From an uncultured Chloroflexia bacterium (GTDB taxonomy: Bacteria; Chloroflexota; Limnocylindria; Limnocylindrales; CSP1-4): a stretch of 64,000 nt of DNA. Below, in pieces: positions 26,937-45,647 of the stretch. The position numbers and the translations under genes are program-made. Under the pieces are notes generated by a model. The model was not told the origin of the DNA. It saw only the letters and a program-made list of their open reading frames with translations, and ran no database searches. The first letter of the stretch is position 1. Each line of letters opens with the position of its first letter. The stretch lies in NCBI GenBank assembly GCA_963749705.1, contig CAVVNQ010000011.1, forward strand, positions 32,001-96,000. Reading direction: 5' to 3'.

Positions 26937-26972
26937 CTACGAAGCCCCAGACGCGATCCACCCCGGGGGCGC

Positions 26973-29900: not shown

Positions 29901-30899
29901 GTGCCGCACGGGCAGCCCGAACACGGCCATCACGGCGTCGCCGATGAACTTCTCGACCGTGCCGCCGTGCTTCTCCAGGACCCGGCGCGACTCCTCGAAG
30001 CCATCGGCCATCACGTCGCGGAGCGTCTCCGGGTCCAGGGGGGCGCCGTCGATCGTGGTCGCCTTGAGGTCCGAGAACACGATCGTGACCGTCTTGCGGC
30101 TCTCCTGCGCCCGCTGCCGGCCGGCGAGCCGGCTGCCGCACGACCCACACCAGGTGAAGTCATCGGGGTTCTCGTCACCGCAGTTCCGGCACACGCGCAA
30201 TTCGGGCCGGTCGGCCGACCCCTGTGCCTGCACCAGGATCGGGGAATCCGTGTTCACGCACAGCAGCCGATACGCAGGGACCGCCGTCGTCGCGCCCTTC
30301 GGCAGGACGGGATCGACGTCTTCCACCTCGACGTCGTTGCCGGCGGCGAGGAGCGTGGATTCGCCGATCAACACCTCGTCGACCGGCGCCGACTGCTCCA
30401 GCTTGTTGGCGAGCTGGACGACGTCGCCGGTCAGGATGTGCTCGCCGACGCTGGCCTCGCCGATCACGGCCTCGCCGGTCGCGATCCCGGTGCGGTTCGT
30501 CAACCGGACCGCCCACGTCCGCTGCAGCTGCTCGTTGAGGGCGGCCAGCGCCCGCTGGCTCTCGGCGGCGGCAGCGAGGGCGCGGAGCGCATCGCCCTCC
30601 CGCGGCAGGGGCAGGCCGAACACGGCCACGATGGCGTCGCCGATGATCTTCTCGATCGTGCCGTCGTACGACTCGAACACGGCGCGCATCTCGTCGAAGT
30701 AGAGGGTCAGGACCTCCCGCAGCGACTCCGGGTCCAACCGCTCGCCGAGCGCGGTGGAACCCTTGAGATCCGAGGTGACGATCGTGACCTGCCGCCGGAC
30801 CTCCCGGGGCGGCCGGTCCGGAGCCACCTGCGCCCGGCAGTACCCGCAGACGCGGTAGCGCGGGTCACTGGGCTGACCGCAGTCGGGACAGGGCACCAT
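26973..30899 (-). CDS. Class III nucleotide cyclase with two zinc-ribbon+cyclase modules, STAND/AAA ATPase and TPR-like C-terminus
   Basis: CPDCG/CGYC and CRNCG/CGSCG ribbons; SDLKGST-EKIIGD and SDLKATT-EKFIGD-VNVAARL cyclases; Walker A GDAGVGKT; Walker B HIDDIHW; GNPLFVEQ. Confidence 0.92.
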   Translation of the reverse strand: MVPCPDCGQPSDPRYRVCGYCRAQVAPDRPPREVRRQVTIVTSDLKGSTALGERLDPESLREVLTLYFDEMRAVFESYDGTIEKIIGDAIVAVFGLPLPREGDALRALAAAAESQRALAALNEQLQRTWAVRLTNRTGIATGEAVIGEASVGEHILTGDVVQLANKLEQSAPVDEVLIGESTLLAAGNDVEVEDVDPVLPKGATTAVPAYRLLCVNTDSPILVQAQGSADRPELRVCRNCGDENPDDFTWCGSCGSRLAGRQRAQESRKTVTIVFSDLKATTIDGAPLDPETLRDVMADGFEESRRVLEKHGGTVEKFIGDAVMAVFGLPVRHEDDGLRAVRSALDMKVGLTDLAERLATERGIRLDVAIGVNTGEVVAGDASLGQRLVTGDAVNVAARLEQAAPVREVLIGDLTHQLVRDAVDVEAVEPLTLKGKAQPVPAYRLLAVRSGDAVARRQDAPMVGREREMAQLEDMLASSVRERGARMVTLVGDAGVGKTRLTREFLDSVEGRARVIRGRCLPYGDGITFWPIVEVVREAVGIREEEPPESARTRLASLLGPDSSDVADRVAAAVGLVDTPFPVSELFWGIRRFFELLAQDGPVVVHIDDIHWAEATFLDLIGYLTETSRDASVLLLCTARNELLERHADWAGADNQARIVLAPLSDADAGQVVENLLGRAGLAEDVRARVVAAAEGNPLFVEQLLSMLIDNGSLRFADDRWQPTVDLSDISIPPTIHALLASRLDQLPAVERSVVEPASVIGLSFAPAAVGELAPDDVTPDLMTHLSSLAAKQLVKAGEAASATDPSYRFQHILIKDAAYQGLLKRSRAIFHERFAVWADRVNAEAGRSTEFEEILGWHLEQAYRYRGELGPLDEHGVAVGIDASRRLASAGRRAMARGDMPAAANLLRRAAGLVPDDHPTRPRLLRDAGEALMEVGDFAAADELLVASKAGAAALEDAAMETTAAIMQMQLQFYQAGSGDGEADVISKVRGLLPTLEATGSHEGLARAWRLMTVLGGGIGRYVFAEEAAEKAIEHARIAEDRLIETRSRSSLAMCALLGQTPVPLAIERCEQLLVQAEGDRKSESLILAVLAHLEAMRGHADRARDLYGRSRATLEELGVRLLAALTSLDSGWVEMIAGDPVAAERELRGDYETLNAMGERMYISTTSASLSEALYRQGRYDEALAMTTFSQESAALDDVSTQFLWRHVRAKVLARRGELEDAVALATESVRLISESDDIESQGNALMSLAEVYWLCGRRSDASATAELAADRFERKGNIVSLAAARSFAQRMEAGVPAASLADAGA

Positions 30900-30997
30900 C
30901 GGCGGAGTCTACGGCATGCGCTGCGGCGGCCGGTCTGCGCGAACAGGAGCAGACCCGACCGCCGCAGCGTCGATGTCTCGGCCATGGCCGCCGCGGG

Positions 30998-32464
30998 CTA
31001 CCGCAGGAACGGATCCCCGGCGCTGGACTGGACGGTCACCGTCAGGCCGCCATTGGCGTGGATCCGGCTATACACGCATGGGGCGTGGTCCGCGTACCCA
31101 CCCACGTCCTGGCAGTCGGGCAACAGCCCCGTGTACCAGGTTCCGCCCATGACATCCGAGACCCTCGAGTCCGGCTGCGCGGTGTCGAAGCCGGTCGTCA
31201 GGCTGGCCGGCGTCCACGCGACCGGGAACTGGTACGGCGCGCTGAAGCAGACCATGTAGTGCACGCCGAGGATCCCTGCGTTGCTCAGCAGCGCGTCCGG
31301 GATGAACAGCCCGGTCTCCTTGCTGCCCGAGGACGCCGCGTTGTACGTCGTCCAGGTCACCGAATTGGTGCCGGAGATCGCGCCAACACCACCGTATTTC
31401 GCAGCCAGGCAATCGAACGCGACGATGTTGAACGATGCGCCGATGGCGCCGGTGGTCGAGTCGGACGTCTGGTTCAGGGTCTGGCCGTTGGTCGATGCCA
31501 GCTGCAGGTCGCACGCGTCCGTGTCGCAGGTCGCCGCGGTGCCCCAGATCCGGAACTGGCCGGATGTCGCCGGGGTGATCGCGGGGTTCGATGGCGCCGT
31601 CGCCGTCAGGGTGAAGGCGCCGCCGACGTTGACGCTCGGCTGGAACGTCGCGGCCCCGGTGGCGGGATCCGTGCCCGTGGGTCCGCCGTTCGCAAGCGCC
31701 GGCGACCCGCCGGCTGCGTCCAGGTGGACCGTGTTGAGCGCCAGCTTCACGCCGGTTGCGAACGCTGCGGGTTGGTTGTTCGAGTCGAGGACCTGCACCG
31801 TGACGGCCTGGACGCCGGCGCCGCTGGGTGTCAGTGGCGTGTTCGTGATCGTCTGGCTCGCGCCGGCATCAGCCGGCTGGACGGAGAACGCGAGGTGGCA
31901 CGGGTCGGCGGCCGACACGGGCTGCGAGCCCGCCAGCGTCAGGTAGTTCGCACCGTTTCCGCTGCTCCACTGGTTGGCCTGCTGGGCGGTGAATGTCCAC
32001 TGCAGCGGGGTGCAGCCGGGTGCCTTGAGGTTGGCGATCTTGATCGTCGCGGACTCGTCCGGCTGGAGGTTGAGGCCCTGCACCTGGAGCATCGAGGGGT
32101 TCACGAGGCCGACCGTCGGGCTGCTGTTCGAATCCGTCGAGGTGACCGTGGCGTACGAACCGGCGACGCTCTCGAAGGTGAACCCGGGGGACGCGGAGAG
32201 GTCGATCTCGAGCGAGCCCAGCTGCTGCGTCTTCGTGGTGTCGGTAACCGTGATCGAAATCGACGTGTTCGAGCCAGCGAAGATCGTGTGCGGCGTCCCC
32301 GATACCGTGTACGGCTTGTTCGAGTTGGCGAGCACGTTCACGCTGAGCAGCGTGGCCAGCAGCGCCGCGGCCGTGGTAACCGCGACCAACCGTACCGGGG
32401 CTGACCGGCGCCCAAATCGGACCCTGGACGTACTGAGCTTCACCGTACCGCTCCTCTTTGCCAT
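30998..32464 (-). CDS. Secreted hypothetical Ser/Thr-rich beta-strand protein
   Basis: Signal-like AAALLATLLSVNVLA; paired cysteines; HLAFSVQP motif typical of Ig-like surface domains; start uncertain. Confidence 0.7.
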   Translation of the reverse strand: MAKRSGTVKLSTSRVRFGRRSAPVRLVAVTTAAALLATLLSVNVLANSNKPYTVSGTPHTIFAGSNTSISITVTDTTKTQQLGSLEIDLSASPGFTFESVAGSYATVTSTDSNSSPTVGLVNPSMLQVQGLNLQPDESATIKIANLKAPGCTPLQWTFTAQQANQWSSGNGANYLTLAGSQPVSAADPCHLAFSVQPADAGASQTITNTPLTPSGAGVQAVTVQVLDSNNQPAAFATGVKLALNTVHLDAAGGSPALANGGPTGTDPATGAATFQPSVNVGGAFTLTATAPSNPAITPATSGQFRIWGTAATCDTDACDLQLASTNGQTLNQTSDSTTGAIGASFNIVAFDCLAAKYGGVGAISGTNSVTWTTYNAASSGSKETGLFIPDALLSNAGILGVHYMVCFSAPYQFPVAWTPASLTTGFDTAQPDSRVSDVMGGTWYTGLLPDCQDVGGYADHAPCVYSRIHANGGLTVTVQSSAGDPFLR

Positions 32465-32537
32465 GTCTGGCACTACCGTCCCCGGGGTACTTTCGGCGTA
32501 CGCCGATGGCTGAGTCAACGTGTCGCGATCGGAAGCG

Positions 32538-32551
32538 TTGACAACTGTCAA
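32538..32551. promoter_or_regulatory. Perfect palindrome TTGACA-AC-TGTCAA, candidate operator
   Basis: Read directly in an AT-richer intergenic region upstream of the secreted protein. Confidence 0.4.
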
Positions 32552-32724
32552 GGGCCGAATGAGCCCCTGGTCCCGCGATCGTACAGGACTTCTGGCCCAT
32601 TGGTACACAAGTGTTTCGGATGCGTTGCAATCCGAGAAGACGCTTGCGGGAACCATGGTCCCGGCGGACCAAGGGCGTGCGTCGGGGCACTGCCGGTCAG
32701 CCGTCGGTCACCCGACGTCCGCCC

Positions 32725-33435
32725 TCAGCTGAGGTGCTTGAGCAGCGCCTCCGCGTGGCCCCGCAGATGGCGGCGCATCGCCTCGGCCGCGGCCTCGCCA
32801 TCGCCCCGGACGATCGCCTCGTAGACGGCGATGTGCGTCGAGCCGGGCTCCTGGTGCGTGTCGACCTGGGATGCCAGGCGGCTGGCGAGGTCGATCCGGC
32901 TGGCCGTGTCCTCGAACGCCTGCGCCAGGTACCGGTTCTGGGCCGCGAGCACGATGAGGTGGTGGAAGTCGGCCAGGCGCGAGTAGTGCCCATCATCGAC
33001 CGGGCGCGCGGACGGATCGATCGCCGCGGCGCGCATCCGCTCCAGGTCTGCGTCGGTACGCCGCTCGGCGGCCAGGCGGGCGCACGCGGTCTCGACCGCC
33101 TCGCGCAGCTCGAAGCTCTCCCGGACGTCACGGGCCGACAGCCGGGCGACGAAGGTGCCGCGCTTGGGGAAGATCTCGACCAGGCCCTCCTGGGCGAGCG
33201 CCTGGAGCGCCTCGCGGATCGGCGTGCGCGACGTCCGGAGCGCCTCCGCCCGCTCTGCCTCGGAGATGGCCGAGCCGGGCAGCAGGTCACCGGCCAGGAT
33301 GTCCCCCTTGATCGCATCGTAGGCGGCATCGCGGAGGCTGCGGGCCCTGCCCCCGCCACCGCCAGGACCGTCCGTCCCCGTCGACACCATGTCCCTGCCT
33401 TCGTCCGTCTGCCGCGCCGGTGCGCGCTCGTCCAT
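32725..33435 (-). CDS. GntR-family regulator (FCD domain)
   Basis: SRTPIREALQALAQEGLV, PKRGTFV, FHHLI, HIAVYEAI, MRRHL. Confidence 0.92.
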   Translation of the reverse strand: MDERAPARQTDEGRDMVSTGTDGPGGGGGRARSLRDAAYDAIKGDILAGDLLPGSAISEAERAEALRTSRTPIREALQALAQEGLVEIFPKRGTFVARLSARDVRESFELREAVETACARLAAERRTDADLERMRAAAIDPSARPVDDGHYSRLADFHHLIVLAAQNRYLAQAFEDTASRIDLASRLASQVDTHQEPGSTHIAVYEAIVRGDGEAAAEAMRRHLRGHAEALLKHLS

Positions 33436-33440
33436 CGTCC

Positions 33441-34274
33441 TCAGGCCGGCACACGGTCTGCGTCCGTGGCCCGCGCCGTCGGCACACAGTATGGCTTGCC
33501 GGAGATCGCATCGATGTTGACCTCGGCATGGACGCCGAACACCTCGACCAGCAGCTCACGGGTCAGGACCTCGGCCGGCGGTCCCTGGCGCCAGATCTCG
33601 CCCTTGCGCACCGCGACCATGTGATCGCTGTATCGCGCCGCCTGGTTGAGCTCGTGGAGCACCATCACGACGGTCATGCCCTGCCGCGCGTTGAGGTCGC
33701 GCAGCAGCTCCAGCACCTCGAGCTGGTGCCCGAGATCGAGGAACGTGGTGGGCTCATCGAGCAGCAGGATCGGCGTCTGCTGGGCGAGCGCCATCGCGAT
33801 CCACGCCCGCTGGCGCTCACCACCCGAGAGCGCGTCGAGCGGCCGGTCGGCGAACGCCTCGAGGTTCGTCTCGTGGAGCGCCCACTTCACGGCCTCGGCG
33901 TCGGCATTCGACCCGGCACCCAGGAACCCCTGGTGCGGATACCGTCCGTTCCACACCAGGCGCTCCACGGTGAGCCCCTCGGGCGACGACGGCCCCTGGG
34001 GCAGGACGGCGAGCCGGCGCGCGACCTCCTTGGTCGGCATCCGCGCGATCGCCTTCCCGTCGAGCAGGACCATGCCTCCCTTGGGCCGCAGCAGGCGTGC
34101 GGTGGCCCGCACGATCGTCGACTTGCCCGACCCGTTGGGGCCGACGACGGCGGTGACCCGCCCGATCGGGAACGTGAGGTCGAGGTCGGTCACCACGATG
34201 CGGCGGTCATAGCCGAGGGTCAGGTTCTCCGCACGAAGCTCTCGCGGCGGCGTGGGAGTGGAGGCGAGGCTCAT
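33441..34274 (-). CDS. Iron-siderophore/cobalamin-type ABC ATPase (FhuC/FecE-like)
   Basis: GPNGSGKST, LSGGERQRAWIAMALAQ, LLDEPTTFLD. Confidence 0.92.
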   Translation of the reverse strand: MSLASTPTPPRELRAENLTLGYDRRIVVTDLDLTFPIGRVTAVVGPNGSGKSTIVRATARLLRPKGGMVLLDGKAIARMPTKEVARRLAVLPQGPSSPEGLTVERLVWNGRYPHQGFLGAGSNADAEAVKWALHETNLEAFADRPLDALSGGERQRAWIAMALAQQTPILLLDEPTTFLDLGHQLEVLELLRDLNARQGMTVVMVLHELNQAARYSDHMVAVRKGEIWRQGPPAEVLTRELLVEVFGVHAEVNIDAISGKPYCVPTARATDADRVPA

Positions 34275-34285
34275 GGGGCTTCCTC

Positions 34286-35326
34286 TCAGACCGAGATCCG
34301 TGTCTTGCGACGCATGATGAGGTAGATGAAGTAGGGCGCCCCGATGAGGGCGGTGAGCAGCCCGGCGGGGAGCTCGCGCGACGGGATGATGGTACGGGCG
34401 ATGTCGTCGGCGACGAGCAGCAGCAGCGCCCCGGCAAGGGCCGACAGCGGCAGCACGAACCGGTGGTTGGCGCCGATCAGCAACCGGATCAGGTGCGGGA
34501 TCACGAGCCCGATGAAGGCGACGGTGCCGGCAACGGAGACCGCGCTCGCGGCGAGCGCGATGGCCACGGCGACCAGCGCGATCCGGGCGACCTCGACGCG
34601 CATGCCGAGGCCGGCGGCAACGCCATCGCCCAGCAGCAGCAGGTTGATCTTGTGCGCGAGCACCATCGCGGAGCCGATCCCGAGGACGGACCACGGCAGG
34701 ATGATCGCGAGGTCCTCCCAGCCGCGCCCGTACAGCGAGCCGGCCAGCCAGGTCAGGGCGACCTGGACGTTCGCATTCTCCACCTTGAGGGTGACGATCG
34801 CGGTCACGGCGGCCTGGAAGATCGCGGTCACGGCGATCCCGGTCAACGCCAGCCGTTCCGGCGCCACGCCGTTCTTCCAGGCGAGCAGGTACACGATCGT
34901 GCCGCTCGCCGTCCCACCCGCCAGCGCGGCGATGGGCAGGACGAAGCGCGGGACGTCGACGAACACCAGCACGATCAGGACGGCGACGAACCCGGCGCCC
35001 GCCGTGACCCCGACCAGGTCCGGGGACGCGAGCGCGTTGCGGGTGACGCCCTGGAGGATCGCCCCGGAGACCGCGAGCTGCGCCCCGACGAGCATCGCGA
35101 TGATGATCCTCGGCAGCCGCAGGTCGAACACGATCTTGCCGTGCAGGGTGCCCGTGCCCGAGAGCAGCGACGAGATGACGTCGACCGGCGAGATCGTCAC
35201 CTGGCCGATGCCCAGGCTCACGATCGCGAGCCCCAGGACGACCAGGGCGAGGCCGAGGACCCCCCACGGGGCCATGCTCCGTCGCCGGACCGTCGCGGCC
35301 GTCATCCGCTGCGCCTCGCCCGTCAT
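34286..35326 (-). CDS. FecCD-family ABC permease
   Basis: DLRLPR, QGVTRNALASPD, FIGLVIPH, GAPYF. Confidence 0.92.
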   Translation of the reverse strand: MTGEAQRMTAATVRRRSMAPWGVLGLALVVLGLAIVSLGIGQVTISPVDVISSLLSGTGTLHGKIVFDLRLPRIIIAMLVGAQLAVSGAILQGVTRNALASPDLVGVTAGAGFVAVLIVLVFVDVPRFVLPIAALAGGTASGTIVYLLAWKNGVAPERLALTGIAVTAIFQAAVTAIVTLKVENANVQVALTWLAGSLYGRGWEDLAIILPWSVLGIGSAMVLAHKINLLLLGDGVAAGLGMRVEVARIALVAVAIALAASAVSVAGTVAFIGLVIPHLIRLLIGANHRFVLPLSALAGALLLLVADDIARTIIPSRELPAGLLTALIGAPYFIYLIMRRKTRISV

Positions 35327-36369
35327 ACGTTGCGCCTCGCCAGGAACAGGAAGAAGGGTCCGCCGAGCAGCGCGATCAGGATGCCCACGGGGATCTCGAG
35401 GGGACGCTGCACGTTGCGCGCCGCGAGGTCCGCCCACACCACGAGCGCGGCACCGAACACGGCCGCGAGCGGGAGCACCCGCCGGTGGTCGACCCCGATC
35501 AGGAACCGTGCGACGTGCGGGCTCACCAGGCCGACGAAGCCGATGGGCCCGGCGACGGCAACCGCCGATGCGGCGAGCACGATGGCGATGACCATGAGCA
35601 TGGCCCGGGTCCGTCCGGTCGACAGGCCGAGCCCCCGGGCGACGTCCTCACCCAGCACCAGGATGTTGAGCTGGCGCGCGTACAGCCCAGCGAGCGTCGC
35701 CCCGACCAGGAACCAGGGGACGATCACCTCCACGTGCTGCCACGAGCGACCGGCAACGCCGCCCGCAAGCCAGAAGTACACCTGCCCGACGACGGAGTTG
35801 TTGAGGATCAGCAACCCGGTCGTCAACGACAGCAGCAGCGATGCCGTGGCAAACCCGGCAAGGGCGAGCCGGATCGGCGTCACAACGCTGCGCGTCGCGA
35901 GGCTGAACACGACGGCACCGCCGGCGCCGCCACCGATGAACGCGATGAACGGGGTCAGCCACAGCGGACGGCCGGGATCGATCACCAGGCTCGCCACCAC
36001 GGCGAGGCCGGCGCCCGCCGAGACACCGGTCAGCGACGGGGACGCCAGCGGATTGCGCGTGAGCGCCTGCATCACCGTCCCCGCGACGGCCAGGCTTGCG
36101 CCCACGAACGCGGCGACGAGCGCGCGTGGGAAGCGCAGCTCCCAGATGATGATCCGGTTCTGGCTCCCGTCATTGACCGTGAGCGCGCGAACGACCTGGT
36201 CGAGCGACATGTCCACGATCCCGAACCGGGTGTCGAACAGGATGCCGATGACCAGCACCACGACGCCGATCGCGATCAGCGCGCCGAACCGCCCGAGCGC
36301 AAGTGCGGCGGCCTTCTCGGGCCGCCGCACCGGTGCTCCCGGTCGTCCGACGTGCGTTGCCGAGCTCAT
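35323..36369 (-). CDS. FecCD-family ABC permease
   Basis: ELRFPR, QALTRNPLASP, FVGLVSPH, GGPFF. Confidence 0.92.
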   Translation of the reverse strand: MSSATHVGRPGAPVRRPEKAAALALGRFGALIAIGVVVLVIGILFDTRFGIVDMSLDQVVRALTVNDGSQNRIIIWELRFPRALVAAFVGASLAVAGTVMQALTRNPLASPSLTGVSAGAGLAVVASLVIDPGRPLWLTPFIAFIGGGAGGAVVFSLATRSVVTPIRLALAGFATASLLLSLTTGLLILNNSVVGQVYFWLAGGVAGRSWQHVEVIVPWFLVGATLAGLYARQLNILVLGEDVARGLGLSTGRTRAMLMVIAIVLAASAVAVAGPIGFVGLVSPHVARFLIGVDHRRVLPLAAVFGAALVVWADLAARNVQRPLEIPVGILIALLGGPFFLFLARRNV

Positions 36370-36396
36370 CGCCTTGCCGGGCGATCCGTCACCCGG

Positions 36397-37455
36397 CTAG
36401 TTGGGGAAGATCTCGGGGTACAGCGCGTGCCGGGCTTGCTCGAGGACGAGCTTGGCCGCCAGCGGGCCGCGGTCACGACTCCACAGGTCACGATCGAACA
36501 GGTACACGCGGTCGTTCTTGACCGCGTTGATCGACGCCCACGCCGGGTTGGCGGCGAGCGAGTCGATGAAGTCCTGCGTGCCGAGCACGAACAGCGTGTC
36601 CGGGTTGACCGAGACCAGCTTCTCCAGGCCAAGCTGCACGAGACCCAGGCTGGATGCCCGGTCGCCGTTGGTTCCCTCGAGGTCCGTGGGCGTCAGGTCC
36701 GACTGCTTGAGCGCGTAGTCCATGCCCAGCGCGGACACGGACGTCCCGATGAACGAGTTGTCGAGCCACATGCCAAGGATGCCGGGTTCGACGCCCGGGT
36801 ACACGATCGCCGTCGAGACCGACGGCTGCGCGCCGATCTTCGCCTGGGTGTCGGCGAGCTCGGCGTTGTAGGCATCGGTGTATGCCTGCGCGACGTCGGA
36901 CTTGCCGGTGATCTGGCCGATCAGCAGCAGCTGGTCGAACGCGTCCTTGACCGAGTTCGCCCGGATCTTGAGGATCGGCGCGCCCACGGTCTCCAGGGCG
37001 GTGTTGTCATTGGAGTTGTCCGAGATGATGAGGTCCGGGTTGAGGGCCACGACCTCCTCGAGGCTCGGCGGCTCGCCGAGGGCCTGCGCGTTGCTCCAGG
37101 TCACGCCCAGGTAGGGCGGCACAGGTCCGCCGTTCCGGCTCGAGAAGCCGACCGGCTCGACGCCCAGGGCCGCAAGCTCGTCCATGGGCTGGAAGCCCCA
37201 GGCATAGATCCGCTGGGGCGCCGCGTTGATGGTGACCGAACCGGAGCCGGCATCCACGGTCATCGGGAAGGTCGGCGCGGGCGCAGTCGTGGGTGCCGCA
37301 CTCTCGGGCGCCATCGAGGGCGCGGTGGTCGCGGGTACGGGGGTGGGTGTCGGGCTCGAGCTCGAGCAGGCCGCGACGAGCATTGCGGCGGCGGCCGCAA
37401 ATGCAAAGCCGCGTGCTGCTCGTCCTCGCTGACGCCTCGGTTCAGTCACGTGCAT
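36397..37455 (-). CDS. Siderophore-type ABC substrate-binding lipoprotein (FecB/FhuD-like)
   Basis: Lipobox VAAC; PQRI, PSLEEVVALNPDLII, WASINAVKNDRVY, WSRDRGP. Confidence 0.9.
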   Translation of the reverse strand: MHVTEPRRQRGRAARGFAFAAAAAMLVAACSSSSPTPTPVPATTAPSMAPESAAPTTAPAPTFPMTVDAGSGSVTINAAPQRIYAWGFQPMDELAALGVEPVGFSSRNGGPVPPYLGVTWSNAQALGEPPSLEEVVALNPDLIISDNSNDNTALETVGAPILKIRANSVKDAFDQLLLIGQITGKSDVAQAYTDAYNAELADTQAKIGAQPSVSTAIVYPGVEPGILGMWLDNSFIGTSVSALGMDYALKQSDLTPTDLEGTNGDRASSLGLVQLGLEKLVSVNPDTLFVLGTQDFIDSLAANPAWASINAVKNDRVYLFDRDLWSRDRGPLAAKLVLEQARHALYPEIFPN

Positions 37456-37530
37456 GGGTCCGCTCCTCCTGCGTGCTCTGCGCGGGTGACGCTGGTCTGT
37501 CGTTGGTCATCATCGGCTGGCCCCTTCCAG

Positions 37531-38679
37531 CTAGGCCATGGCCACTCCTGCCGGCTGGCCCAGCACCCGGCCGGATTCGATGTCGATCTCGATGAACTCG
37601 TGTCCGCACGGCGGGCCGGCGGCCACGGACATGACACCCGCCGTGAGATCCGTGATGACCGTCGCCACGGTCATCCAGCGCTCGTGCCGCGGCGCGTCCG
37701 GATCCGGATGGCTGCACAGTCCCCGCCCGTCGCCCAGGTGGTCGCGGAGGATCGCCGCCAGATCCGACCGGTCGATCCCGCCCGACGCTCGGGCGCGGTC
37801 CATCAGCCATGCTCCGCGTCCATAGCGGACGATCGAGTCGGCACTGGGCGCGTAGGTCGCGGCGAGCTCCGGCGGGATCTCCACCAGGTAGTGGTTGGTG
37901 TGGAACAGCCAGCCGTCGGTCGGGTACATCCAGCGGGTCGTTGCCGGCATCGTCTCGATATCGACCGCGAACCCGTCGCGATGCGTGATCAGCAGGTTGG
38001 TCGAGCCGGGTCGCGTGCCGGCGGTCGCCATCTCGACCGCCTCGGTGATGTTGCCGGACCGCAGGATCCGACGGCGCATGAACGTCGACGGCAGCGCCGA
38101 CGGGTCACGGAGCCGCGACGACAGCCCGTTCGCGTGGAGCGCGATCCCCGCGGTGTTGGCCCCATGGCGTCCGACCTGTCCGGCCTCGGCGATCATCAGC
38201 TGGCGAGGTCCATCCGTCGGGCGCAGGTGGACCAGCACGATCGTGTCGGCGATCTCCTCGAGGTAGTCCCAGTTCTGGCCGGTCAGCAGGTGGCCGTCGC
38301 GGCTGGCCTCGGGCATGACCGCGAAGCTGGTGCAGCCGTCGTTGGCGGCCTTGGCCTCGCGCTGGATCGCGGGCGGGACCACGAACATGCCGCGCGTGTT
38401 GAGGGCAAGGATCTCGCCGACGCTGAAGCCGCTCCCCTCCGCGATCCCTTCGATCTCGCTGACGATCTCGGGGTCGCGGCTGCGCCAGATCGACAGTCGC
38501 TGTGACACACCGTCGATGATCTGGCCGAACGTCGCCCCCATCGACGGGACGACCGCGTCCGCGTAGAACGCCAGCGAGCGGGCGATCCGCTCCTTCGCCT
38601 GGGCCCCGTACGAGAACCCCCGGGTGAAGGCATCGCCTTCGATGACGATCAGCGGGAACGGCGCGGTCGGCTCAGTCAT
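37531..38679 (-). CDS. Peptidase C45 / acyl-CoA:6-APA acyltransferase-family Ntn hydrolase
   Basis: EIEGIAEG, autoprocessing site DG/CTSF, GQNWD, HTNHY. Confidence 0.9.
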   Translation of the reverse strand: MTEPTAPFPLIVIEGDAFTRGFSYGAQAKERIARSLAFYADAVVPSMGATFGQIIDGVSQRLSIWRSRDPEIVSEIEGIAEGSGFSVGEILALNTRGMFVVPPAIQREAKAANDGCTSFAVMPEASRDGHLLTGQNWDYLEEIADTIVLVHLRPTDGPRQLMIAEAGQVGRHGANTAGIALHANGLSSRLRDPSALPSTFMRRRILRSGNITEAVEMATAGTRPGSTNLLITHRDGFAVDIETMPATTRWMYPTDGWLFHTNHYLVEIPPELAATYAPSADSIVRYGRGAWLMDRARASGGIDRSDLAAILRDHLGDGRGLCSHPDPDAPRHERWMTVATVITDLTAGVMSVAAGPPCGHEFIEIDIESGRVLGQPAGVAMA

Positions 38680-38685
38680 TCGGGG

Positions 38686-38731
38686 ACTCTAACATATCAG
38701 TCGTCGACTGCAAGGGTGGAAGTTGTCGACA
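38686..38731 (-). promoter_or_regulatory. Sigma70-type promoter with overlapping palindromic operators for the C45-ABC-GntR operon
   Basis: TTGCAG (38713-38708) N16 TAGAGT (38691-38686) with extended TGn; ATG 6 nt downstream; CAGTCG-N-CGACTG at 38698-38710 and TGTCGACA at 38724-38731. Confidence 0.6.
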
Positions 38732-38794
38732 TCGAGCTCGCGACATCACACCGGTGTCCGGGTCCCCCGCCGGCCTTCGGGGCCCCGGCGCCGG

Positions 38795-40198
38795 TCAGCG
38801 GCGGGCGATCGCGTCGACGGGAAACGCGCTCGACACCATCGCCGGTGCGACGACCGCGTCGATGAACGGGGCCTCGCCCTGCTCGCGCCGGGAGCCGACC
38901 GCCTCGATCGATCGGAACAGGTCCACCAGGCCGACCGTGAACCGGAACTGCGGTGCGGGCCCGACCACGCGGCCGCCGCGTACCCGCCGCGTCCCGTCGC
39001 GGGTCGTCCCGGTGACCAGTCCCTGGCGCGGCTGGACCACCCGGACGTAATCGACCCGCTCGATCACCAGGCCGTCGTCGAGGATCCCGAGGAGGTCATC
39101 TGGGTCATCGTCGCCCGCCGAGACGATCAGGTGCGACGGGCTCGGCCCGGACCCGAACCGCCAGCCCGGCGGCGCCGTGTGGCCGGTCGGATCCGTCCCC
39201 GCCAGGGTCGCCGTACGCACGTCGTGGACGACACCCACCGGGCGTCCGGCCTCGACCAGCGTGACGGCACGCTTCGGCCAGCCCGCGCAATCGAACGCGG
39301 CGGGCAGCCCGGCCGGATCGCGTGCATCGTCCCGGAACGTGATCAGTCCCGACAGCGTCGGGGCGGCATCCGAGCGGCCGGCCAACCCGCGAGGAGCCGT
39401 CGTCGTCGTCCCGAACGGGCCGACCGTGCCACCGGCACCGACGGCGCCCAGGCCGATGTAGGCAAGGGTCGCGGCCAGGGTGGCCACGGCCTGCGGCCCG
39501 AGTATCGCCCGCGCCGGACCGTCGGGCAGGTCCAGCAGCGGCCCGGCGGGGATGCCCTCGGCCGCCGCGGCACCGGCCTCCAGCGGGTCGATCCGGCCCC
39601 AGCAGGTGTCGATCCGGCGCACGAACGTCGAGCCGTGCTCGCCGGTCGCCACGACCTGGAGCGCCGCTCGCGACCGCTGCTCGGCGACCTCGAGGCCCGC
39701 GGTGTTGGCCACGATCGTGTCGGTGACGCGCGTCGAGATCGAGCCGCCGAGGCTGATCTCGTCCGGGATCCGCTCGGCCAGGACGCCGAACACGTGCGCC
39801 CGGTCCGCGGGCGACACGGCCAGCGTCTCGTCGCATGCAGCCGCCGGGCCGGGCGGGCGGGTCCACGGGGCCGGCATGGCTGCGGGGACACCCGCTGGCA
39901 GCAGGTCGAGGGCCGCCGCGAGCCGGTCGATCGTTGCCCGCACCCGGTCCCCGTCCGCCGTCTCGAGCAGGGCCCAGCCCTCCCGGTCGCCGCGGACGAG
40001 CCGGAGGCGAAGCAGCGCGCGCTCCTCGTCGTGCTGGTAGGTGATCTGCCGGTTGCCGAAGCGCAGCAGGCTCAGCCGCTCGCGGAGGAGCTCGATATGA
40101 GCGCCGTCCGCACGCGTCCGCGCGTGGCGCAGGTGCTCGCCCACGAGCTCGCGATCCTTGCCCGCTCCCCCACCATCGGATACCCGCACCTCGTCCAT
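38795..40198 (-). CDS. tldE: TldE/PmbA-family protein
   Basis: LLRFGNRQITYQH, GPQAVA, TGHT, TGTTRDG; lacks HExxxH; TGATG-coupled to tldD. Confidence 0.8.
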   Translation of the reverse strand: MDEVRVSDGGGAGKDRELVGEHLRHARTRADGAHIELLRERLSLLRFGNRQITYQHDEERALLRLRLVRGDREGWALLETADGDRVRATIDRLAAALDLLPAGVPAAMPAPWTRPPGPAAACDETLAVSPADRAHVFGVLAERIPDEISLGGSISTRVTDTIVANTAGLEVAEQRSRAALQVVATGEHGSTFVRRIDTCWGRIDPLEAGAAAAEGIPAGPLLDLPDGPARAILGPQAVATLAATLAYIGLGAVGAGGTVGPFGTTTTAPRGLAGRSDAAPTLSGLITFRDDARDPAGLPAAFDCAGWPKRAVTLVEAGRPVGVVHDVRTATLAGTDPTGHTAPPGWRFGSGPSPSHLIVSAGDDDPDDLLGILDDGLVIERVDYVRVVQPRQGLVTGTTRDGTRRVRGGRVVGPAPQFRFTVGLVDLFRSIEAVGSRREQGEAPFIDAVVAPAMVSSAFPVDAIARR

Positions 40199-41646
40199 CA
40201 GACGCCGACGCGCGCGTTCCGGAAGCGCGCCGGGACCGCGCCGTGACCGATGTGGGCGACCTGGAGCGGCTCGCCCTTGTTGCACGACGGGAGGCCCCAC
40301 TGGCGAAAGCTGGCCCGATCGCCGACGGCGTCGCAGCCGGCCCAGAACTCGAGCGTGTCGCCCTCGTAGGTGGGGTCCCTGAGCATCCGCCCCAACCGTC
40401 CGTCGCGGATCTCCCACGCGATCTCGGCGCCGAAGCGGAACGACCGGCGGCGGTCGTCGATGCTCAGGCTGCGGTTCATGTCGATCAGGATCCCGTCGCG
40501 CGTGGTTCCGATCATCTCGTCGAGCGGCGTGTCACCGGGCTCGATCGACACGTTGGTCATCCGGACGAGCGGGATCCGCCGCCATCCGTCGGCGCGCGCC
40601 GCGCCCGACGAGGGCTCGTCGAGCGACGCGGCCGACCCCCGCGAGGACAGGAACCCGACCACCATGCCGTCCTCGATGATCGTGGTCCGGGTTGCGGCGA
40701 CACCCTCGTCGTCCCAGGCAAACGAGCCGAGCGCACCCGGGCGGGTCGCGTCGGCGACGATCGTGACCAGCTCGGTCCCGAACCGCTGGCGCCCGCGCTC
40801 GGCGGGCAGCATGTACGTGCCACCGGCGGTGCTGTCCTCCGCCCCGAGCGTTCGGTCGAGCTCCGACGGGTGCCCGGCGGTCTCGTGGACGAGCTGCGCC
40901 ATCTGGCTCGCGCCGACGATGAGGGTGGTCGTCGCCGGCGGGCAGCGATCCGCCGACAGCAGCGCCGCCGCCTCCTCGCCCACGCGGGCAGCAGCCTCGA
41001 CCAGCCCCAGCGAGCGGACGTGCTCCCAGCCGGCATTGGCGAAGTCGCCCCGCTCCCCGATGATCGACCGGGGAACGCTCTGCGGATACGACCGGCGCTG
41101 GACATCGGTCTCGTTCCGGGCCGTCGCGAGCAGGCCGGCGCCGGTCTCCGTGATCACCTGCTCGATCCGGCTGCCCTCGGTGCTCGCGAACAGCTTCTCG
41201 TCCCGGTACGCGTCCGCCGATGCCTGGGCCGAGACGACCTCGGGGCCCGCAGCGCGCATGATCCGCGCGCTCTCGAGCAGGAGCTCGATTCGCTCGTCGA
41301 GGGGGACCTCGAACGGGTCCTGGATGCAGGGCGACGACCAGGTGCCCTCGACGACCGGTGCGGGCGCGAGCCGGGACCGTGGCCCGGATGCCGCACCGGC
41401 CTGGCCGACGGCGATCCTCACCAGCTCCGCCAGGCCATCGACATCGGTCCGCGTCGACGCCGCGAACCCCCACTGGCCGCCGACCAGGACGCGGAGCCCG
41501 ATCCCCTCGGTCTCCTCGAGGACGAGCTGCGCCACGCGATCGTTCTCGATATGGACGCCCTGGTGCCGCCGCCGGACGACCCGCACGTCCCCGTACTCGA
41601 CGCTCGAGGGGAGAAGCCCCAGGATGCGCTCGGCGAGGGCCCGCAC
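40198..41646 (-). CDS. tldD: TldD-family metalloprotease
   Basis: HETAGH zinc motif, WDDEGV, PLVRMTN, CNKGEP. Confidence 0.9.
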   Translation of the reverse strand: MRALAERILGLLPSSVEYGDVRVVRRRHQGVHIENDRVAQLVLEETEGIGLRVLVGGQWGFAASTRTDVDGLAELVRIAVGQAGAASGPRSRLAPAPVVEGTWSSPCIQDPFEVPLDERIELLLESARIMRAAGPEVVSAQASADAYRDEKLFASTEGSRIEQVITETGAGLLATARNETDVQRRSYPQSVPRSIIGERGDFANAGWEHVRSLGLVEAAARVGEEAAALLSADRCPPATTTLIVGASQMAQLVHETAGHPSELDRTLGAEDSTAGGTYMLPAERGRQRFGTELVTIVADATRPGALGSFAWDDEGVAATRTTIIEDGMVVGFLSSRGSAASLDEPSSGAARADGWRRIPLVRMTNVSIEPGDTPLDEMIGTTRDGILIDMNRSLSIDDRRRSFRFGAEIAWEIRDGRLGRMLRDPTYEGDTLEFWAGCDAVGDRASFRQWGLPSCNKGEPLQVAHIGHGAVPARFRNARVGV

Positions 41647-41655
41647 GGCCGGCGG

Positions 41656-41940
41656 TCAGTCCGCCGCGTCGCGGGCCAGGCCGGCGTGTGCCGGTGTCGG
41701 CGCCGCGTGGGTCTGGGCGGCGCGGCCGGCCCGGGCGATCGAACCGAGCAGGAACAGGGAGACCGCGGCGAACAGGACCACGCCCAGCGCGTCGACCGGC
41801 ACCGGCGTCTCGTTTGCGGCCAGCCATCCCGTCAGCACGAGCGCAAGCACGGCCCCGACTGCGACGAACCCGTCGTCGATCACCAGGCCGATCACCTGGT
41901 CGACGGTGCCGCGCAGGATCCCCGAGATCGAGATGTTCAT
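41656..41940 (-). CDS. Small two-TM membrane protein (GLVIDDG motif)
   Basis: TGATG-coupled to the upstream gene; two hydrophobic helices. Confidence 0.75.
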   Translation of the reverse strand: MNISISGILRGTVDQVIGLVIDDGFVAVGAVLALVLTGWLAANETPVPVDALGVVLFAAVSLFLLGSIARAGRAAQTHAAPTPAHAGLARDAAD

Positions 41941-42698
41941 CAGACGGCCCTCGACACGACCCGGCCACCGGGCACCATGATGTTGAGCATCCTCACGCCC
42001 GCAATCGACACCAGGACGAACGCGATGAAGATGACCGGCAGGGCCAGCGCATCGCCGGGCCACTCCACCCCCATCCCCTCGGCGGCCCAGAACACGCCGA
42101 ACGAGCAGAGCATCGCGCCGACGAAGTACTTGAGCGTGTTCTCCGGCACCCGGCTGAGCGGCTGGCGCACGATCGCGCCGATGATCGAGACCAGCACGAA
42201 TGCCGCGATGGCACCCAGCGTCGAGGCGAGCATGGCGTCGGTCCCCGACGCGCCCAGCGCGATCACGATGAAGGCGACCTCGAGACCCTCGAGCAGCATC
42301 GCCTTGTAGCTTGCGACGAACCCGATCCAGTCGAAGCGGTCCGACGACAGCCCCTGTGCCCGGAGATCGGCGACCTCGCGCTGGTAGATCGCCTCCTCGT
42401 CGTGGAGTGGCACGATGCCGGCGTACCGGAGGATCGCCTTGCGGATCCACTTGAGCCCGAACAGCAGGAGCAGCGACCCGACGAAGACCTGGAAGGCATG
42501 CTCGGGGATCACGTTGATCAGCGTCACGCCGAACACGCCGACGAGCGCACCCAGGGTCAGCAACGCGGCGCCCGCGCCGTATAGTGGCGCCCGCCAGCCG
42601 CGGGTCACACCAATGGCGAGGACGATCGTGTACGCCTCGACGAACTCCACGACCGATCCCATGAACGCCGGGACGGCCGCCACGACCATTGTCAGCAT
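41940..42698 (-). CDS. COG4280-like membrane protein, putative metal permease
   Basis: Duplicated ExxE motifs (VVEFVEA, LLEGLEVA), PLSRVPENTLK, about seven TM helices. Confidence 0.8.
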   Translation of the reverse strand: MLTMVVAAVPAFMGSVVEFVEAYTIVLAIGVTRGWRAPLYGAGAALLTLGALVGVFGVTLINVIPEHAFQVFVGSLLLLFGLKWIRKAILRYAGIVPLHDEEAIYQREVADLRAQGLSSDRFDWIGFVASYKAMLLEGLEVAFIVIALGASGTDAMLASTLGAIAAFVLVSIIGAIVRQPLSRVPENTLKYFVGAMLCSFGVFWAAEGMGVEWPGDALALPVIFIAFVLVSIAGVRMLNIMVPGGRVVSRAV

Positions 42699-42728
42699 AT
42701 GTAACACCTGCTACGTTGTACTCAATGC

Positions 42729-42758
42729 ACTCTAGGATCGCGGCAGGGCGCTTGTCAA
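42729..42758 (-). promoter_or_regulatory. Sigma70-type promoter for the COG4280-tldD-tldE operon
   Basis: TTGACA (42758-42753) N18 TAGAGT (42734-42729); imperfect inverted repeat TGTAAC-N4-GCTACG at 42700-42715 just before the start codon. Confidence 0.6.
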
Positions 42759-42810
42759 CCTGCATCGACGGGGCCGCCGGGCATCGGTCACGGCGCGGGA
42801 TTCGGGCGTC

Positions 42811-43530
42811 GTGACGAGGTCGCGGGACAAGGCGCCGACGTCGGGTGCGCCTGCCGACGCGTCCCCCTCCGCGGGCACGTCCACAGCCGCCGGCGCGTCC
42901 ACCGCCGTCACCGTGTCCGCCGATCCTGCCTGGACGCTCATCGTCTATCGGGTCCCGACGGACTCCTCGCGTGCCCGGGTCGCGATCTGGCGCGACCTGA
43001 AGCGGCTGGGTGGCCTGTACCTCCAGCAATGCGTGTGCATCGTCCCGCACACGACCGAGACCGCCCAGAGCATGACCGCGATCCAGGAACACATCGAGGA
43101 GCTGGGCGGCACGTCCAACGTGTTCGACGTGGCGATGAACGACCCGCAGCGCGACCAGCTGATCGCCGACTTCCGAGGTCTCGCCGGGCGGGACTACGCC
43201 GAGATCGTCGAGGAATGCCAGACGAAGTTCGTCAAGGAGATCGAGTTCGAGCGGTTCCGCTCCAACTTCACGTTCGAGGAGGTGGAGGAGATCCGCCACG
43301 ACCTCGAGAAGATCCGTCGCTGGTTCAGGCGAGCCAGCGCGCGGGACTGGTTCGGGGCCCCGGGTCGGGCCGAGGCGGAGACCTGGATCGAGCGATGCGC
43401 GGCGCTCCTCGACGCGTTCGAGGAGGACGTGTTCACCGTTACCTCGGGTGATGACGCGCCGCCACCGGCGGCGGCCGCGGCCGAGGCCCCGGCGACGAGA
43501 AGGTCAGCCGGCGCCGACGCCCAGGGCTAG
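42811..43530 (+). CDS. ChrB N-terminal-domain-like protein, putative transcription regulator
   Basis: WTLIVYRVP..SSRARVAIWRDLKRLGGLYLQQCVC, FTFEEVEE, RDWFG; divergent from the COG4280 operon; start uncertain. Confidence 0.75.
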   Translation: MTRSRDKAPTSGAPADASPSAGTSTAAGASTAVTVSADPAWTLIVYRVPTDSSRARVAIWRDLKRLGGLYLQQCVCIVPHTTETAQSMTAIQEHIEELGGTSNVFDVAMNDPQRDQLIADFRGLAGRDYAEIVEECQTKFVKEIEFERFRSNFTFEEVEEIRHDLEKIRRWFRRASARDWFGAPGRAEAETWIERCAALLDAFEEDVFTVTSGDDAPPPAAAAAEAPATRRSAGADAQG

Positions 43531-45564: not shown

Positions 45565-45647
45565 CGGCTCATGCTACGGGTGGTGGCCCGGGCCGCGCTC
45601 GGGCATCATCTGTTGCCGGACGCCGCCCGGCGCCAAGAGGAGTCCCG

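Follow-up and report, generated by a model that had tools for sequence, protein, structure and literature searches.

A C45 amidohydrolase gene at the head of a FecCD-type importer operon in an uncultured Chloroflexota bacterium: a candidate system for import and amide cleavage of metal chelates

Iron release from carboxylate siderophores of the NIS type (synthesized independently of nonribosomal peptide synthetases, NRPS) is known mainly as reduction, and hydrolysis of the siderophore backbone is established for ester-linked catecholates. The enzymes Fes, IroD/IroE and BesA are alpha/beta-hydrolase esterases that act on trilactone catecholates under Fur control. Here we analyze an operon from an uncultured Chloroflexia bacterium in which the gene for a C45 N-terminal nucleophile (Ntn) amidohydrolase precedes those for a FecCD-type ATP-binding cassette (ABC) importer and a GntR-type regulator. 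The operon lies within a stretch of 64,000 nucleotides, hereafter the window (GenBank assembly GCA_963749705.1, contig CAVVNQ010000011.1, positions 32,001 to 96,000 of the forward strand), and all coordinates given without another identifier refer to the window (Table 1). We propose that the island carrying this operon imports a citrate-based ferric chelate whose amide bond is cut by the C45 enzyme in the cytoplasm, under substrate-type control; we hold this reading tentatively, as slightly more doubtful than secure.

Several described systems share parts of this architecture. As with Fes, IroD/IroE and BesA, a ferric chelate would be imported by a FecCD-type ABC transporter and its backbone would then be cleaved in the cytoplasm; unlike those systems, the enzyme in the window is a cysteine Ntn amidohydrolase, the ligand is likely a carboxylate, and the regulator belongs to the GntR family. 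Release of iron by hydrolysis is documented for ester-linked siderophores, and amidases for apo-desferrioxamines as nutrients, in the available part of PMC11800396. Ntn hydrolases that cut siderophore amide bonds have been described as well: PvdQ, the marinobactin acylases BntA and MhtA, and PdnM appear, in the accessible portion of PMC13592322, as periplasmic enzymes of the penicillin-acylase type that are found in siderophore producers. These proteins resemble the window enzyme in being self-cleaving Ntn hydrolases, and the cleavage of a siderophore amide that they perform is proposed here. However, they carry signal peptides and strip fatty-acyl tails during maturation or tailoring by the producer, whereas the window enzyme is of the C45 type, is predicted to be cytoplasmic, is encoded together with an importer, and belongs to a genome in which no siderophore synthetase was found. 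Isopenicillin N acyltransferase (IAT, PenDE; 2x1c/2x1d) and insect Tan, the characterized C45 members, have the same family assignment, fold and Gly-Cys autoproteolytic site and act on small aminoacyl amides, which they cleave or transfer. Unlike the window enzyme, which is 25-26% identical to IAT, both are eukaryotic and are not known to have a transporter link. For bacterial members of the C45 clade to which the window enzyme belongs, no known substrate was found in the literature searched.

On the side of the importer, the closest described system is HtsABC of Staphylococcus aureus (HtsA structures 3eiw, 3lhs and 3li2), which likewise has a heterodimeric FecCD permease and a class III binding protein that is a lipoprotein; unlike HtsABC, the window operon encodes its own ATPase. 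The Hts system is iron-regulated and is not known to include a C45 enzyme or any other hydrolase. A full-text literature search, judged mostly by abstracts, turned up no publication connecting C45 enzymes with siderophores or FecCD importers. Within the same limits, the literature contains no described system with C45, FecCD and GntR components, in accord with what an earlier reading of this DNA, made from the sequence alone, had stated (hereafter the sequence-only reading). Thus, import followed by hydrolytic processing of a chelate is known, and the enzyme family and the regulator type are not described in that role.

The six genes of the operon, all on the minus strand, encode, in the order of transcription, the C45 enzyme, the binding protein, two FecCD permeases, an ATPase and a GntR/FCD regulator. 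Families, coordinates, gene order and the short or overlapping junctions all agree with the sequence-only reading: from C45 to GntR, the junctions measure 75, 27, -4 (an ATGA overlap between the permeases), 11 and 5 bases, in a window with a GC content of about 70%. All six domain assignments exceed the curated Pfam cut-offs, and the contiguous genes for two FecCD proteins, an ABC_tran ATPase and a Peripla_BP_2 protein make up a type II (FecCD/BtuCD-type) ABC importer. Because no part of the transporter reaches an NCBIfam equivalog cut-off (FecB-like, 95 vs 320 bits; FecE, 310.3 vs 375 bits), the importer is not an orthologue of a named importer. The regulator, with a GntR winged helix at residues 35-96 and an FCD domain at residues 106-225, belongs to the FadR/FCD subfamily of the GntR family; it is above no NCBIfam equivalog cut-off either, the top model being phnR_burk (91.7 vs 271.5 bits).

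The assignment of the first gene to the C45 family is secure: the match to NF040521 spans residues 14-350 of 382, and PF03417 (AAT) is exceeded as well (54.2 bits against a cut-off of 23.2). The autoproteolytic Gly-Cys site consists of G115 and C116 (motif DGCTSF), neither of which varies among the 17 sequences of a first alignment; in a second alignment, of 19 sequences, C116 is again invariant and G115 is at least 90% conserved. In the structure model (predicted local distance difference test, pLDDT, 88; predicted template modelling score, pTM, 0.89), the linker that precedes the cysteine (residues 103-113) is disordered, as expected of a proenzyme. The top Foldseek match of the model is IAT (2x1c_A; E = 5.5e-29, template modelling (TM) scores 0.81/0.87, root-mean-square deviation 2.6), followed by acid ceramidase and then NAAA, so that the modelled fold is the alpha-beta-beta-alpha fold of Ntn hydrolases. 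The protein is predicted, from sequence and model, to cleave itself between Gly115 and Cys116 and thereby to expose the cysteine nucleophile. No signal peptide or hydrophobic segment was seen at the N-terminus when the sequence was read, and the enzyme is therefore predicted to be cytoplasmic. A third C45 gene of the genome (contig 4, 28% identity) has no transporter context by tblastn and was set aside.

The binding protein bears on the class of the cargo. It has a lipobox (LVAAC) followed by a Pro/Thr/Ala-rich linker to about residue 56, and residues 1-56 are disordered in its AlphaFold model (pLDDT 85.6). Its subfamily is narrow, with about 37 metagenome proteins at 47% identity or more, two Brevibacillus proteins at 37-38%, and all others at 33% or less. 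When a profile of 19 members was compared with the sequences in the PDB, HtsA came first (151 bits, E = 4e-43), IsdE reached only 52 bits, and BtuF was not among the best 60 matches. Likewise, the first five Foldseek ranks of the model are HtsA entries (3li2, with staphyloferrin A: TM 0.83 on the target), followed by FecB of Vibrio alginolyticus (8y4v and 8y4y, with citrate and ferric citrate as given in the Foldseek entry titles) and then by YfiY (3tny, with schizokinen). A literature search for a paper on 8Y4V/8Y4Y returned nothing relevant. The ligands of the closest solved relatives are all citrate-based ferric complexes.

The base of the HtsA pocket is lined by three basic residues, at positions 299, 304 and 306, according to the available part of PMC2966073; one paper prints this triad as 'Lys' although it speaks of three Arg, and the HtsA sequence in our alignment has Arg. 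The HtsA segment DRDVWARSRG aligns with DRDLWSRDRG in the window protein, so that the triad corresponds to R322, R327 and R329, which are invariant in 19 of 19 subfamily sequences. Vibrio FecB, the second-best relative by sequence and fold (and the best for the binding protein of the Kribbella-type loci described below), keeps only the last arginine of the triad (SLNRG), unlike the window protein. HtsA is the top match of the window protein by both profile and fold, the arginine triad is retained, and the protein probably works like an HtsA-type carboxylate-chelate receptor, yet it is not an HtsA orthologue (22-24% identity over the fold alignment). Binding proteins from two other C45-linked lineages also match HtsA, with 195.7 bits for locus L066 and 197.5 bits for locus L083, and both retain a W-[SA]-[RK]-x-R-G motif; the L066 protein is about 26% identical to that of the window, the one pair measured. 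Thus, a receptor of the HtsA branch is present in every C45-linked FecCD system tested, that is, in three binding proteins. By sequence and model, a metal chelate is supported as the cargo, on the strength of HtsA-like receptors whose solved relatives hold citrate-based ferric ligands; together with the neighbouring genes of the iron-transport type, this supports the same suggestion in the sequence-only reading. That reading had also listed cobamides among the candidate ligands, which we judge unlikely given the ranking of BtuF in the profile search and the lack of a cobalamin riboswitch described below.

We examined the neighbourhoods of C45 genes in 129 loci, 80 from species genomes (the best 80 of 372 relatives) and 49 from metagenomes, which were classed by tblastn comparison with proteins from the window and three reference loci; Pfam scans covering 127 proteins of 15 loci served as a check. 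In at least 12 of these loci (L001, L002, L066, L081, L082, L083, L090, L091, L100, L104, L111 and L128), C45 adjoins a FecCD-type importer or, where the contig ends, the binding protein of one; L001 was not counted as independent because it may duplicate one of the genus genomes. The full gene order of the window, ChrB_N, permease, TldD, PmbA, C45, binding protein, two FecCD, ATPase and GntR, recurs in L082, with a C45 identity of 72%. In L002, from an Acidimicrobiia genome, C45 is followed by the binding protein, two FecCD genes, the ATPase, GntR/FCD, and then VIT1 and a permease homologue. The region directly upstream of C45 in that locus (L002:464-7851) is a mobile or defence-rich setting: besides DUF2397, DUF2398 and DUF2399/JetD_C genes, it holds an IS110-type transposase, a MazF toxin gene and a gene for a LacI regulator.

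A tree of 127 C45 proteins (quick IQ-TREE search, LG+G4, SH-aLRT support only, rooted on a 32%-identical paralogue) was built without rows that had a match below 900 bases, an open reading frame (ORF) below 300 amino acids or an internal stop, L001 among them. The window groups with L081, L082, L002, L083 and L084 (SH-aLRT 99). All five members of this clade with genomic context are Fec-linked, the sixth being a 2.5 kb contig, and the clade spans the genus of the window, the Acidimicrobiia genome and a low-GC marine contig, that is, two phyla and that contig. Most of the 119 rows in its sister group are associated with RpiR and linked to Dpp-type importers. Inside this sister group, Fec-linked rows occur at three or more further places, namely L066/L090/L091, L100/L104, and the tandem pair in L111. 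The link between C45 and FecCD importers, whose co-occurrence the sequence-only reading had proposed to check, is accordingly not a chance arrangement: it is present in every window-clade member with context and in at least three other C45 lineages. One of the refuting conditions set in the sequence-only reading, a C45 gene unlinked to the transporter in relatives, is thereby decided in favour of that reading.

The importer beside C45 is nevertheless of a different class in most of the family. Behind C45 in 86 of the 129 loci come genes for an SBP_bac_5 binding protein, a pair of BPD_transp_1 permeases and a pair of oligo_HPY ATPases, and a divergent RpiR gene (HTH_6 and SIS domains) lies upstream in 80 of these 86; RpiR is found in 5 of 11 Fec-linked loci. 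The hosts of the 86 loci include Streptomyces, Nonomuraea, Nocardiopsis, Lentzea and Microbacterium. The binding proteins of these Dpp-linked relatives score best against GsiB (104.8 bits, below the cut-off). The iaaA-gsiABCD genes of Escherichia coli, where an Ntn isoaspartyl peptidase gene precedes a Dpp-type glutathione importer, have the same architecture; they differ from the window in the Ntn family, which uses a threonine nucleophile, and in the importer class. For the RpiR-C45-SBP_bac_5 module itself (for example, L028:6968-14549 and L017:7002-14155), no description was found in the literature searched. Tandem pairs of C45 paralogues, about 40% identical to the window enzyme and with the two copies in different clades of the tree, stand behind a single RpiR gene in L073:1253-3573, L092, L101, L111:6916-9059, L094 and L120. 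Four loci have SBP_bac_6 and/or major facilitator superfamily (MFS) genes beside C45: among three scanned loci from metagenome-assembled genomes (MAGs) of Chloroflexota or Limnocylindria, SBP_bac_6 adjoins C45 in L035, L039 and L075, an MFS gene and two permeases are also present in L035 and L039, and a gene resembling gamma-aminobutyrate (GABA) transaminase lies upstream in L035 and L075.

Altogether, C45 enzymes stand ahead of importers in at least 98 of the 129 loci, with hosts that include Streptomyces, Nonomuraea, Kribbella, Chloroflexota and Acidimicrobiia. The regular first position of C45 before importers of varying class is the signature of an enzyme that processes imported cargo; by the same token, because the importer class varies, C45 alone is not evidence of a metal chelate. 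Judging from sequence and context, the enzyme would be a general cargo-amide hydrolase partner of importers rather than a siderophore-specific one. The window clade and the Dpp-linked enzymes differ at 44 conserved positions, four of which (61, 127, 159 and 207) are arginine gains. A residue signature common to all Fec-linked C45 lineages was sought and rejected: only S35 and H172, two of the 44 positions, are shared with both RpiR-type Fec-linked groups, so that there is no convergent signature of Fec-linked C45 enzymes.

The neighbours of C45 also differ between the two classes of loci. Counted per locus within 7 kb of C45, an OFeT_1-like permease is found in 8 of 11 Fec-linked loci vs 1 of 86 Dpp-linked loci, ChrB_N in 6 of 11 vs 0 of 86, and TldD in 5 of 11 vs 1 of 86, counts that are not independent because the Fec-linked loci represent only four or five lineages. 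Other metal-related genes occur at particular loci, namely a cation diffusion facilitator (CDF) of the FieF/MamB kind beside C45 in L083, and a FetB-like UPF0014 permease (TIGR00245, 156 bits, below the cut-off) with an ATPase in L111. An AcnA aconitase gene (1159 bits) lies directly upstream of C45 in L112, and a dehydrogenase of the Iso_dh family (isocitrate/isopropylmalate type) is divergent to C45 in L100; these neighbours from the citrate branch of metabolism hint at a link with citrate. At the Kribbella-type loci, known from one Kribbella MAG (L066) and metagenome contigs, a threonine/serine dehydratase gene directly follows that of the importer ATPase (L066:13143-14189 and L090:8736-9701; NF005292, 373 vs 371 bits), which suggests that a hydroxy-amino acid is released there.

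In the window, too, the operon has company. The genes for PmbA, TldD, a 94-residue protein and an OFeT_1-like permease lie upstream of C45 on the same strand, with mutual gaps that are either overlaps or 9 bases. There are two neighbouring minus-strand transcription units: permease/94-residue protein/TldD/PmbA, followed by C45/binding protein/two FecCD/ATPase/GntR. The permease has two ExxE-like motifs (VEFVE and LEGLE), and its closest Atlas clusters (score 0.97-0.98) contain OFeT_1 in 82-89% of their members. The TldD protein matches the NCBIfam TldD models below the cut-off, and a 72-residue ORF stands at the position equivalent to that of the 94-residue protein in L002 and L066. A DNA search of 70 genomes of the genus found the region from just below the GntR stop to past ChrB_N in two other genomes, at 95% and 84% identity. 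In a further genome, G434, the flanks of the block (window 27000-32629 and 43338-46231) are only about 58 bases apart, and the junction retains the 3' end of ChrB_N together with an inverted 57-base ChrB_N fragment; G434 has therefore lost the block of about 10.7 kb. The C45 operon, the permease unit and the divergent ChrB_N gene are therefore gained or lost together as one block. The six genes outlined in the sequence-only reading stand, and what it missed are the TldD/PmbA, metal permease and ChrB_N genes that travel with them.

The island is also rare. In a protein search, a close C45 orthologue (89% identity or more) was found in 3 of the 70 genus genomes, including that of the window itself, and six others have only a paralogue at 35-37% identity; among 401 genomes sampled from the phylum, two gave the binding protein at E <= 1e-25, that of the window and one at 33% identity. 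Such sparse occurrence of the C45 orthologue and the binding protein marks the island as a rare accessory block. In the other island-bearing genomes (G463:C9:68017-69163, G438:C10:42446-43592 and L001:8001-9147), the C45 frame is split in two, by either a frameshift in a pseudogene or an assembly error.

Table 1. Positions of the genes and regulatory features of the island in the window (cut-offs follow "vs")
Feature	Position	Strand	Basis
Accessory block of about 10.7 kb, GntR to ChrB_N	32630..43337	.	present or absent as a single unit in the genus DNA search
GntR regulator with FCD effector domain, 236 aa, final gene of the operon	32725..33435	-	GntR 62.8 bits, FCD 77.3 bits
ABC ATPase, FecE-like, 277 aa	33441..34274	-	ABC_tran 105.5 bits vs 25
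FecCD permease 2, 346 aa, ATGA overlap with permease 1	34286..35326	-	FecCD 314.3 bits vs 26.5
FecCD permease 1, 348 aa	35323..36369	-	FecCD 316.4 bits vs 26.5
HtsA-like lipoprotein substrate-binding protein, 352 aa	36397..37455	-	Peripla_BP_2 86.5 bits vs 27.5
C45 Ntn amidohydrolase/acyltransferase proenzyme, 382 aa	37531..38679	-	NF040521 234.3 bits vs 85; predicted self-cleavage Gly115/Cys116
C45 promoter and candidate GntR operator	38686..38731	-	sequence read and conservation; putative function
PmbA/TldE-type partner, 467 aa; ATG overlaps TldD stop by 1 base	38795..40198	-	PmbA_TldD_3rd 81.8 bits
TldD-type metallopeptidase, 482 aa	40198..41646	-	PmbA_TldD 1st, 2nd and 3rd domains; 3rd 130 bits
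Small hydrophobic protein, 94 aa; start overlaps permease stop	41656..41940	-	no match in Pfam or NCBIfam
OFeT_1/GDT1-type membrane protein, 255 aa, putative iron/divalent-metal permease	41940..42707	-	OFeT_1 36 bits vs 26.9
Sigma-70-like promoter site TTGACA-18-TAGAGT ahead of the permease gene	42729..42758	-	10/12 positions matched
ChrB_N-domain protein, 239 aa, divergent from the permease operon, possible regulator	42811..43530	+	ChrB_N 112.5 bits vs 23

Several features of the surroundings deserve mention. On the left, the island is abutted by a gene for a 552-residue Ser/Thr/Ala-rich protein with an N-terminal hydrophobic segment and no Pfam match (30998-32656, minus strand), next to one for a 1308-residue protein with a zinc ribbon, an adenylate/guanylate cyclase domain, AAA_16 and TPR (26973-30899, minus strand). 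In genome G463, about 600 bases stand in place of window 26909-32721, which holds the gene for the 1308-residue protein and the next one. On the right, the island is bordered by a gene for an S9 prolyl oligopeptidase (43504-45564, minus strand) that is kept at 72-78% DNA identity in many genomes of the genus, with about 40 among the matches listed, whether or not the island is present. The same assembly (3.6 Mb in 22 contigs, 88% complete) contains a second copy of about 19.2 kb that includes the whole island: window 26989-46231 corresponds to G000 contig 15:468124-487350 (L135) at 96% DNA identity, with island proteins 98-100% identical to those of the window. This copy could be a true duplication or the result of two strains having been binned together.

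The remaining FecCD genes of the genome belong to that second copy and to a single-permease locus on contig 18 (126612-130550; L134, L136), where genes for an ATPase and a Peripla_BP_2 protein (111.5 bits) complete a BtuCD/Hmu-like layout, so that the operon type of the window is the only two-permease FecCD system of the genome. In this genome, which is 88% complete, the search turned up neither an IucA/IucC match nor an NRPS condensation domain, and no siderophore-interacting protein (SIP) reductase scored above the cut-off. Since no siderophore synthetase was found, the cargo, if it is a siderophore, is made by another organism. The absence of synthetase and reductase genes asserted in the sequence-only reading thus holds for the genome at this level of completeness; that of an esterase holds for the island, where none of the 11 genes encodes an alpha/beta-hydrolase esterase domain, esterases not having been searched elsewhere. 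On that count, a siderophore esterase system of the Fes/BesA/IroD kind was rejected for the island.

With respect to regulation, the region upstream of C45 contains recognizable elements. The palindrome TGTCGACA (38731-38724) lies upstream of the -35 box TTGCAG (38713-38708), a second motif, GTCGAC (38708-38703), overlaps the end of that box, and a 16-base spacer separates it from the -10 box TAGAGT (38691-38686). The ATG is 6 bases after the -10 box, and the C45 mRNA is therefore probably leaderless. The block ATGTCGAC...GTCGACGACTG(A/G)TATGTTA recurs in L001 and L081 and also in the much more distant L082 (72% identical), and is not conserved in L002, L083 or L084. Proteins of the GntR/FCD type bind short GT..AC palindromes, and the promoter block fits this pattern. 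The sigma-70-like site ahead of the permease gene was the only one found by the scan of 32400-43700, which detected no intrinsic terminators.

A scan of 32600-43600 with IdeR/DtxR, Fur and Zur consensuses, which come from other phyla, gave best matches with 5-7 mismatches, no better than in the rest of the window; to that extent, the report of no Fur- or DtxR-like box in the sequence-only reading is borne out. The genome encodes one DtxR-type and two Fur-type proteins. An Rfam search of 30000-46000 for riboswitches and other families (E up to 1) returned only two chance microRNA matches, with E of 0.28 and 0.96. The FCD-GntR regulator, the conserved palindrome of the C45 promoter and the lack of recognizable iron boxes are consistent with control by substrate rather than by iron, as the sequence-only reading had proposed for induction.

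These observations can be combined into a simple scheme for the import and amide cleavage of a citrate-based ferric chelate. Under this scheme, the lipoprotein would capture a foreign-made ferric alpha-hydroxycarboxylate chelate, most likely a citrate-based ligand that contains amide links and resembles staphyloferrin A, rhizoferrin or schizokinen, which the heterodimeric FecCD permease and the ATPase would import. In the cytoplasm, the self-activated C45 enzyme would use Cys116 to hydrolyze an amide bond of the ligand; the cleavage would lower the denticity and so release the iron, and the fragments, citrate and amine, would become nutrients. By occupying the GTCGAC palindromes, the FCD-GntR protein may keep the leaderless C45 promoter repressed; its binding of the ligand or of a carboxylate product would lift this repression. 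The freed metal would be handled by the OFeT_1-like permease, as perhaps by the VIT1, CDF or FetB-like genes in relatives. Either release of iron or consumption of the ligand as food could result. The interpretation is plausible in that it draws on independent lines of evidence, namely the receptor class, the metal-transport neighbours and the co-inheritance of the block.

A number of points weigh against this scheme. All of its steps beyond gene content are ones that we infer. Most C45 loci (those 86 of 129) sit with Dpp/Opp-type importers and RpiR and have no iron signature; because this is the majority of the family, C45 is not intrinsically a siderophore enzyme. Furthermore, the C45 enzymes of the RpiR-type Fec-linked loci resemble the Dpp-linked enzymes at 42 of the 44 distinguishing positions. 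The Fec-linked loci are akin within lineages, so that the counts overstate independence, and the C45 tree was searched quickly and drew long-branch warnings. Both aconitase and Iso_dh belong to housekeeping families; seen at two loci only, they may be chance neighbours. Given the foreign origin of the iron-box consensuses, iron control in Chloroflexota is compatible with their absence. In HtsA, Arg104 and Arg126 of the N-lobe, and His209, contact staphyloferrin A, as described in the available part of PMC10553834. By manual count on the profile alignment, none of the three is kept in the window protein: R104 belongs to a 2-residue HtsA insertion that the window protein lacks, R126 corresponds to Asn, and H209 to Trp230. 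The loss of these contacts indicates that the ligand is not staphyloferrin A itself, and for this reason the protein is not filed as an HtsA orthologue. Moreover, plain ferric citrate, which offers no amide bond for cleavage, could be the ligand. The interpretation in the sequence-only reading, a metallophore-catabolism system, is thus partly supported: we retain the C45-importer link and the chelate class, but do not regard the enzyme as siderophore-specific, given that the family is mostly Dpp/Opp-linked, a pattern which that reading had not seen.

If the cargo were instead a metal-free organic amide, of the citryl-, beta-alanyl- or GABA-type or an unusual peptide, C45 would split it for carbon and nitrogen and FecCD would simply have replaced the Dpp importer. 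Much in the family context agrees with this view: the two C45-associated regulator types, FCD-GntR and RpiR, are both catabolic, no iron box was found, the Dpp-linked loci predominate, and some relatives have a GABA-transaminase-like, aldehyde dehydrogenase or Ser/Thr dehydratase gene beside C45. In addition, bacterial amidases break down desferrioxamines solely when these are in the apo form, to supply carbon and nitrogen, in the part of PMC11800396 that is available. We nevertheless regard this explanation as unlikely because the closest solved relatives of all three tested C45-linked binding proteins hold ferric chelates and because metal permease or efflux genes accompany the Fec-linked, not the Dpp-linked, loci; moreover, catabolism of the ligand and release of iron can coexist. 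The objection from ferric citrate leads to another explanation, in which the importer is an ordinary one for ferric citrate or xenosiderophores and C45 acts on something other than the cargo, such as TldD/PmbA peptides or a housekeeping substrate. Vibrio FecB in complex with ferric citrate ranks among the top matches in both structure and sequence, TldD accompanies the module in 5 of the 11 Fec-linked loci, and C45 has its own promoter directly after PmbA. However, C45 heads the importer operon, 75 bases from the binding-protein gene; its family stands first before three importer classes (Dpp-type, FecCD-type, and SBP_bac_6 with MFS), a pattern of cargo processing; and the link is kept in L002, L083 and L100 without TldD/PmbA. 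Dissociation of C45 from the cargo therefore seems improbable.

Two further explanations would assign C45 a more specialized task. Imported siderophore-antibiotic conjugates are cleaved by cytoplasmic peptidases, which provides a general precedent for a C45 enzyme that removes an amide-linked moiety from a siderophore-linked compound and thereby activates or detoxifies it. The rare and patchy occurrence of the island would suit such a role, but the island contains no resistance, immunity or biosynthetic genes, and the wider context of the C45 family is catabolic, so that sideromycin processing appears very improbable. Salvage of cobamides or haem, with C45 as an amidase on a corrinoid (CbiZ-like) or on a haem-derived product, is scarcely credible even though FecCD-type importers carry vitamin B12 and haem too: the Rfam search returned no cobalamin riboswitch or other family in 30000-46000, the profile search separated the binding protein from BtuF and IsdE, as noted above, and the genome has a separate single-permease BtuCD/Hmu-like locus. 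Assignment of the operon as a BtuFCD-type cobalamin uptake locus was rejected for want of a riboswitch and a BtuF-like binding protein.

If the proposed import and amide cleavage of a citrate-type chelate is correct, a cytoplasmic amidase would constitute a second hydrolytic route of iron release, and bacterial C45 enzymes would have a first substrate class. A broader generalization, which we consider rather doubtful, is that the clade's bacterial C45 enzymes make up a large class of hydrolases that cut amides of imported cargo in the cytoplasm and are hard-wired to importers as the first gene of the operon, and that the FecCD-linked branches would be the first amide-cleaving iron-release enzymes for citrate-amide (NIS-type) siderophores, controlled by ligand through GntR or RpiR, equipped with a dedicated metal permease and present in organisms that produce no siderophore themselves. 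To our knowledge, hardly any genes for siderophore degradation in the environment are known, and the finding, if true, would bear on siderophore turnover there. The island possibly represents an undescribed way to free iron from, or to feed on, the iron carriers of other microbes.

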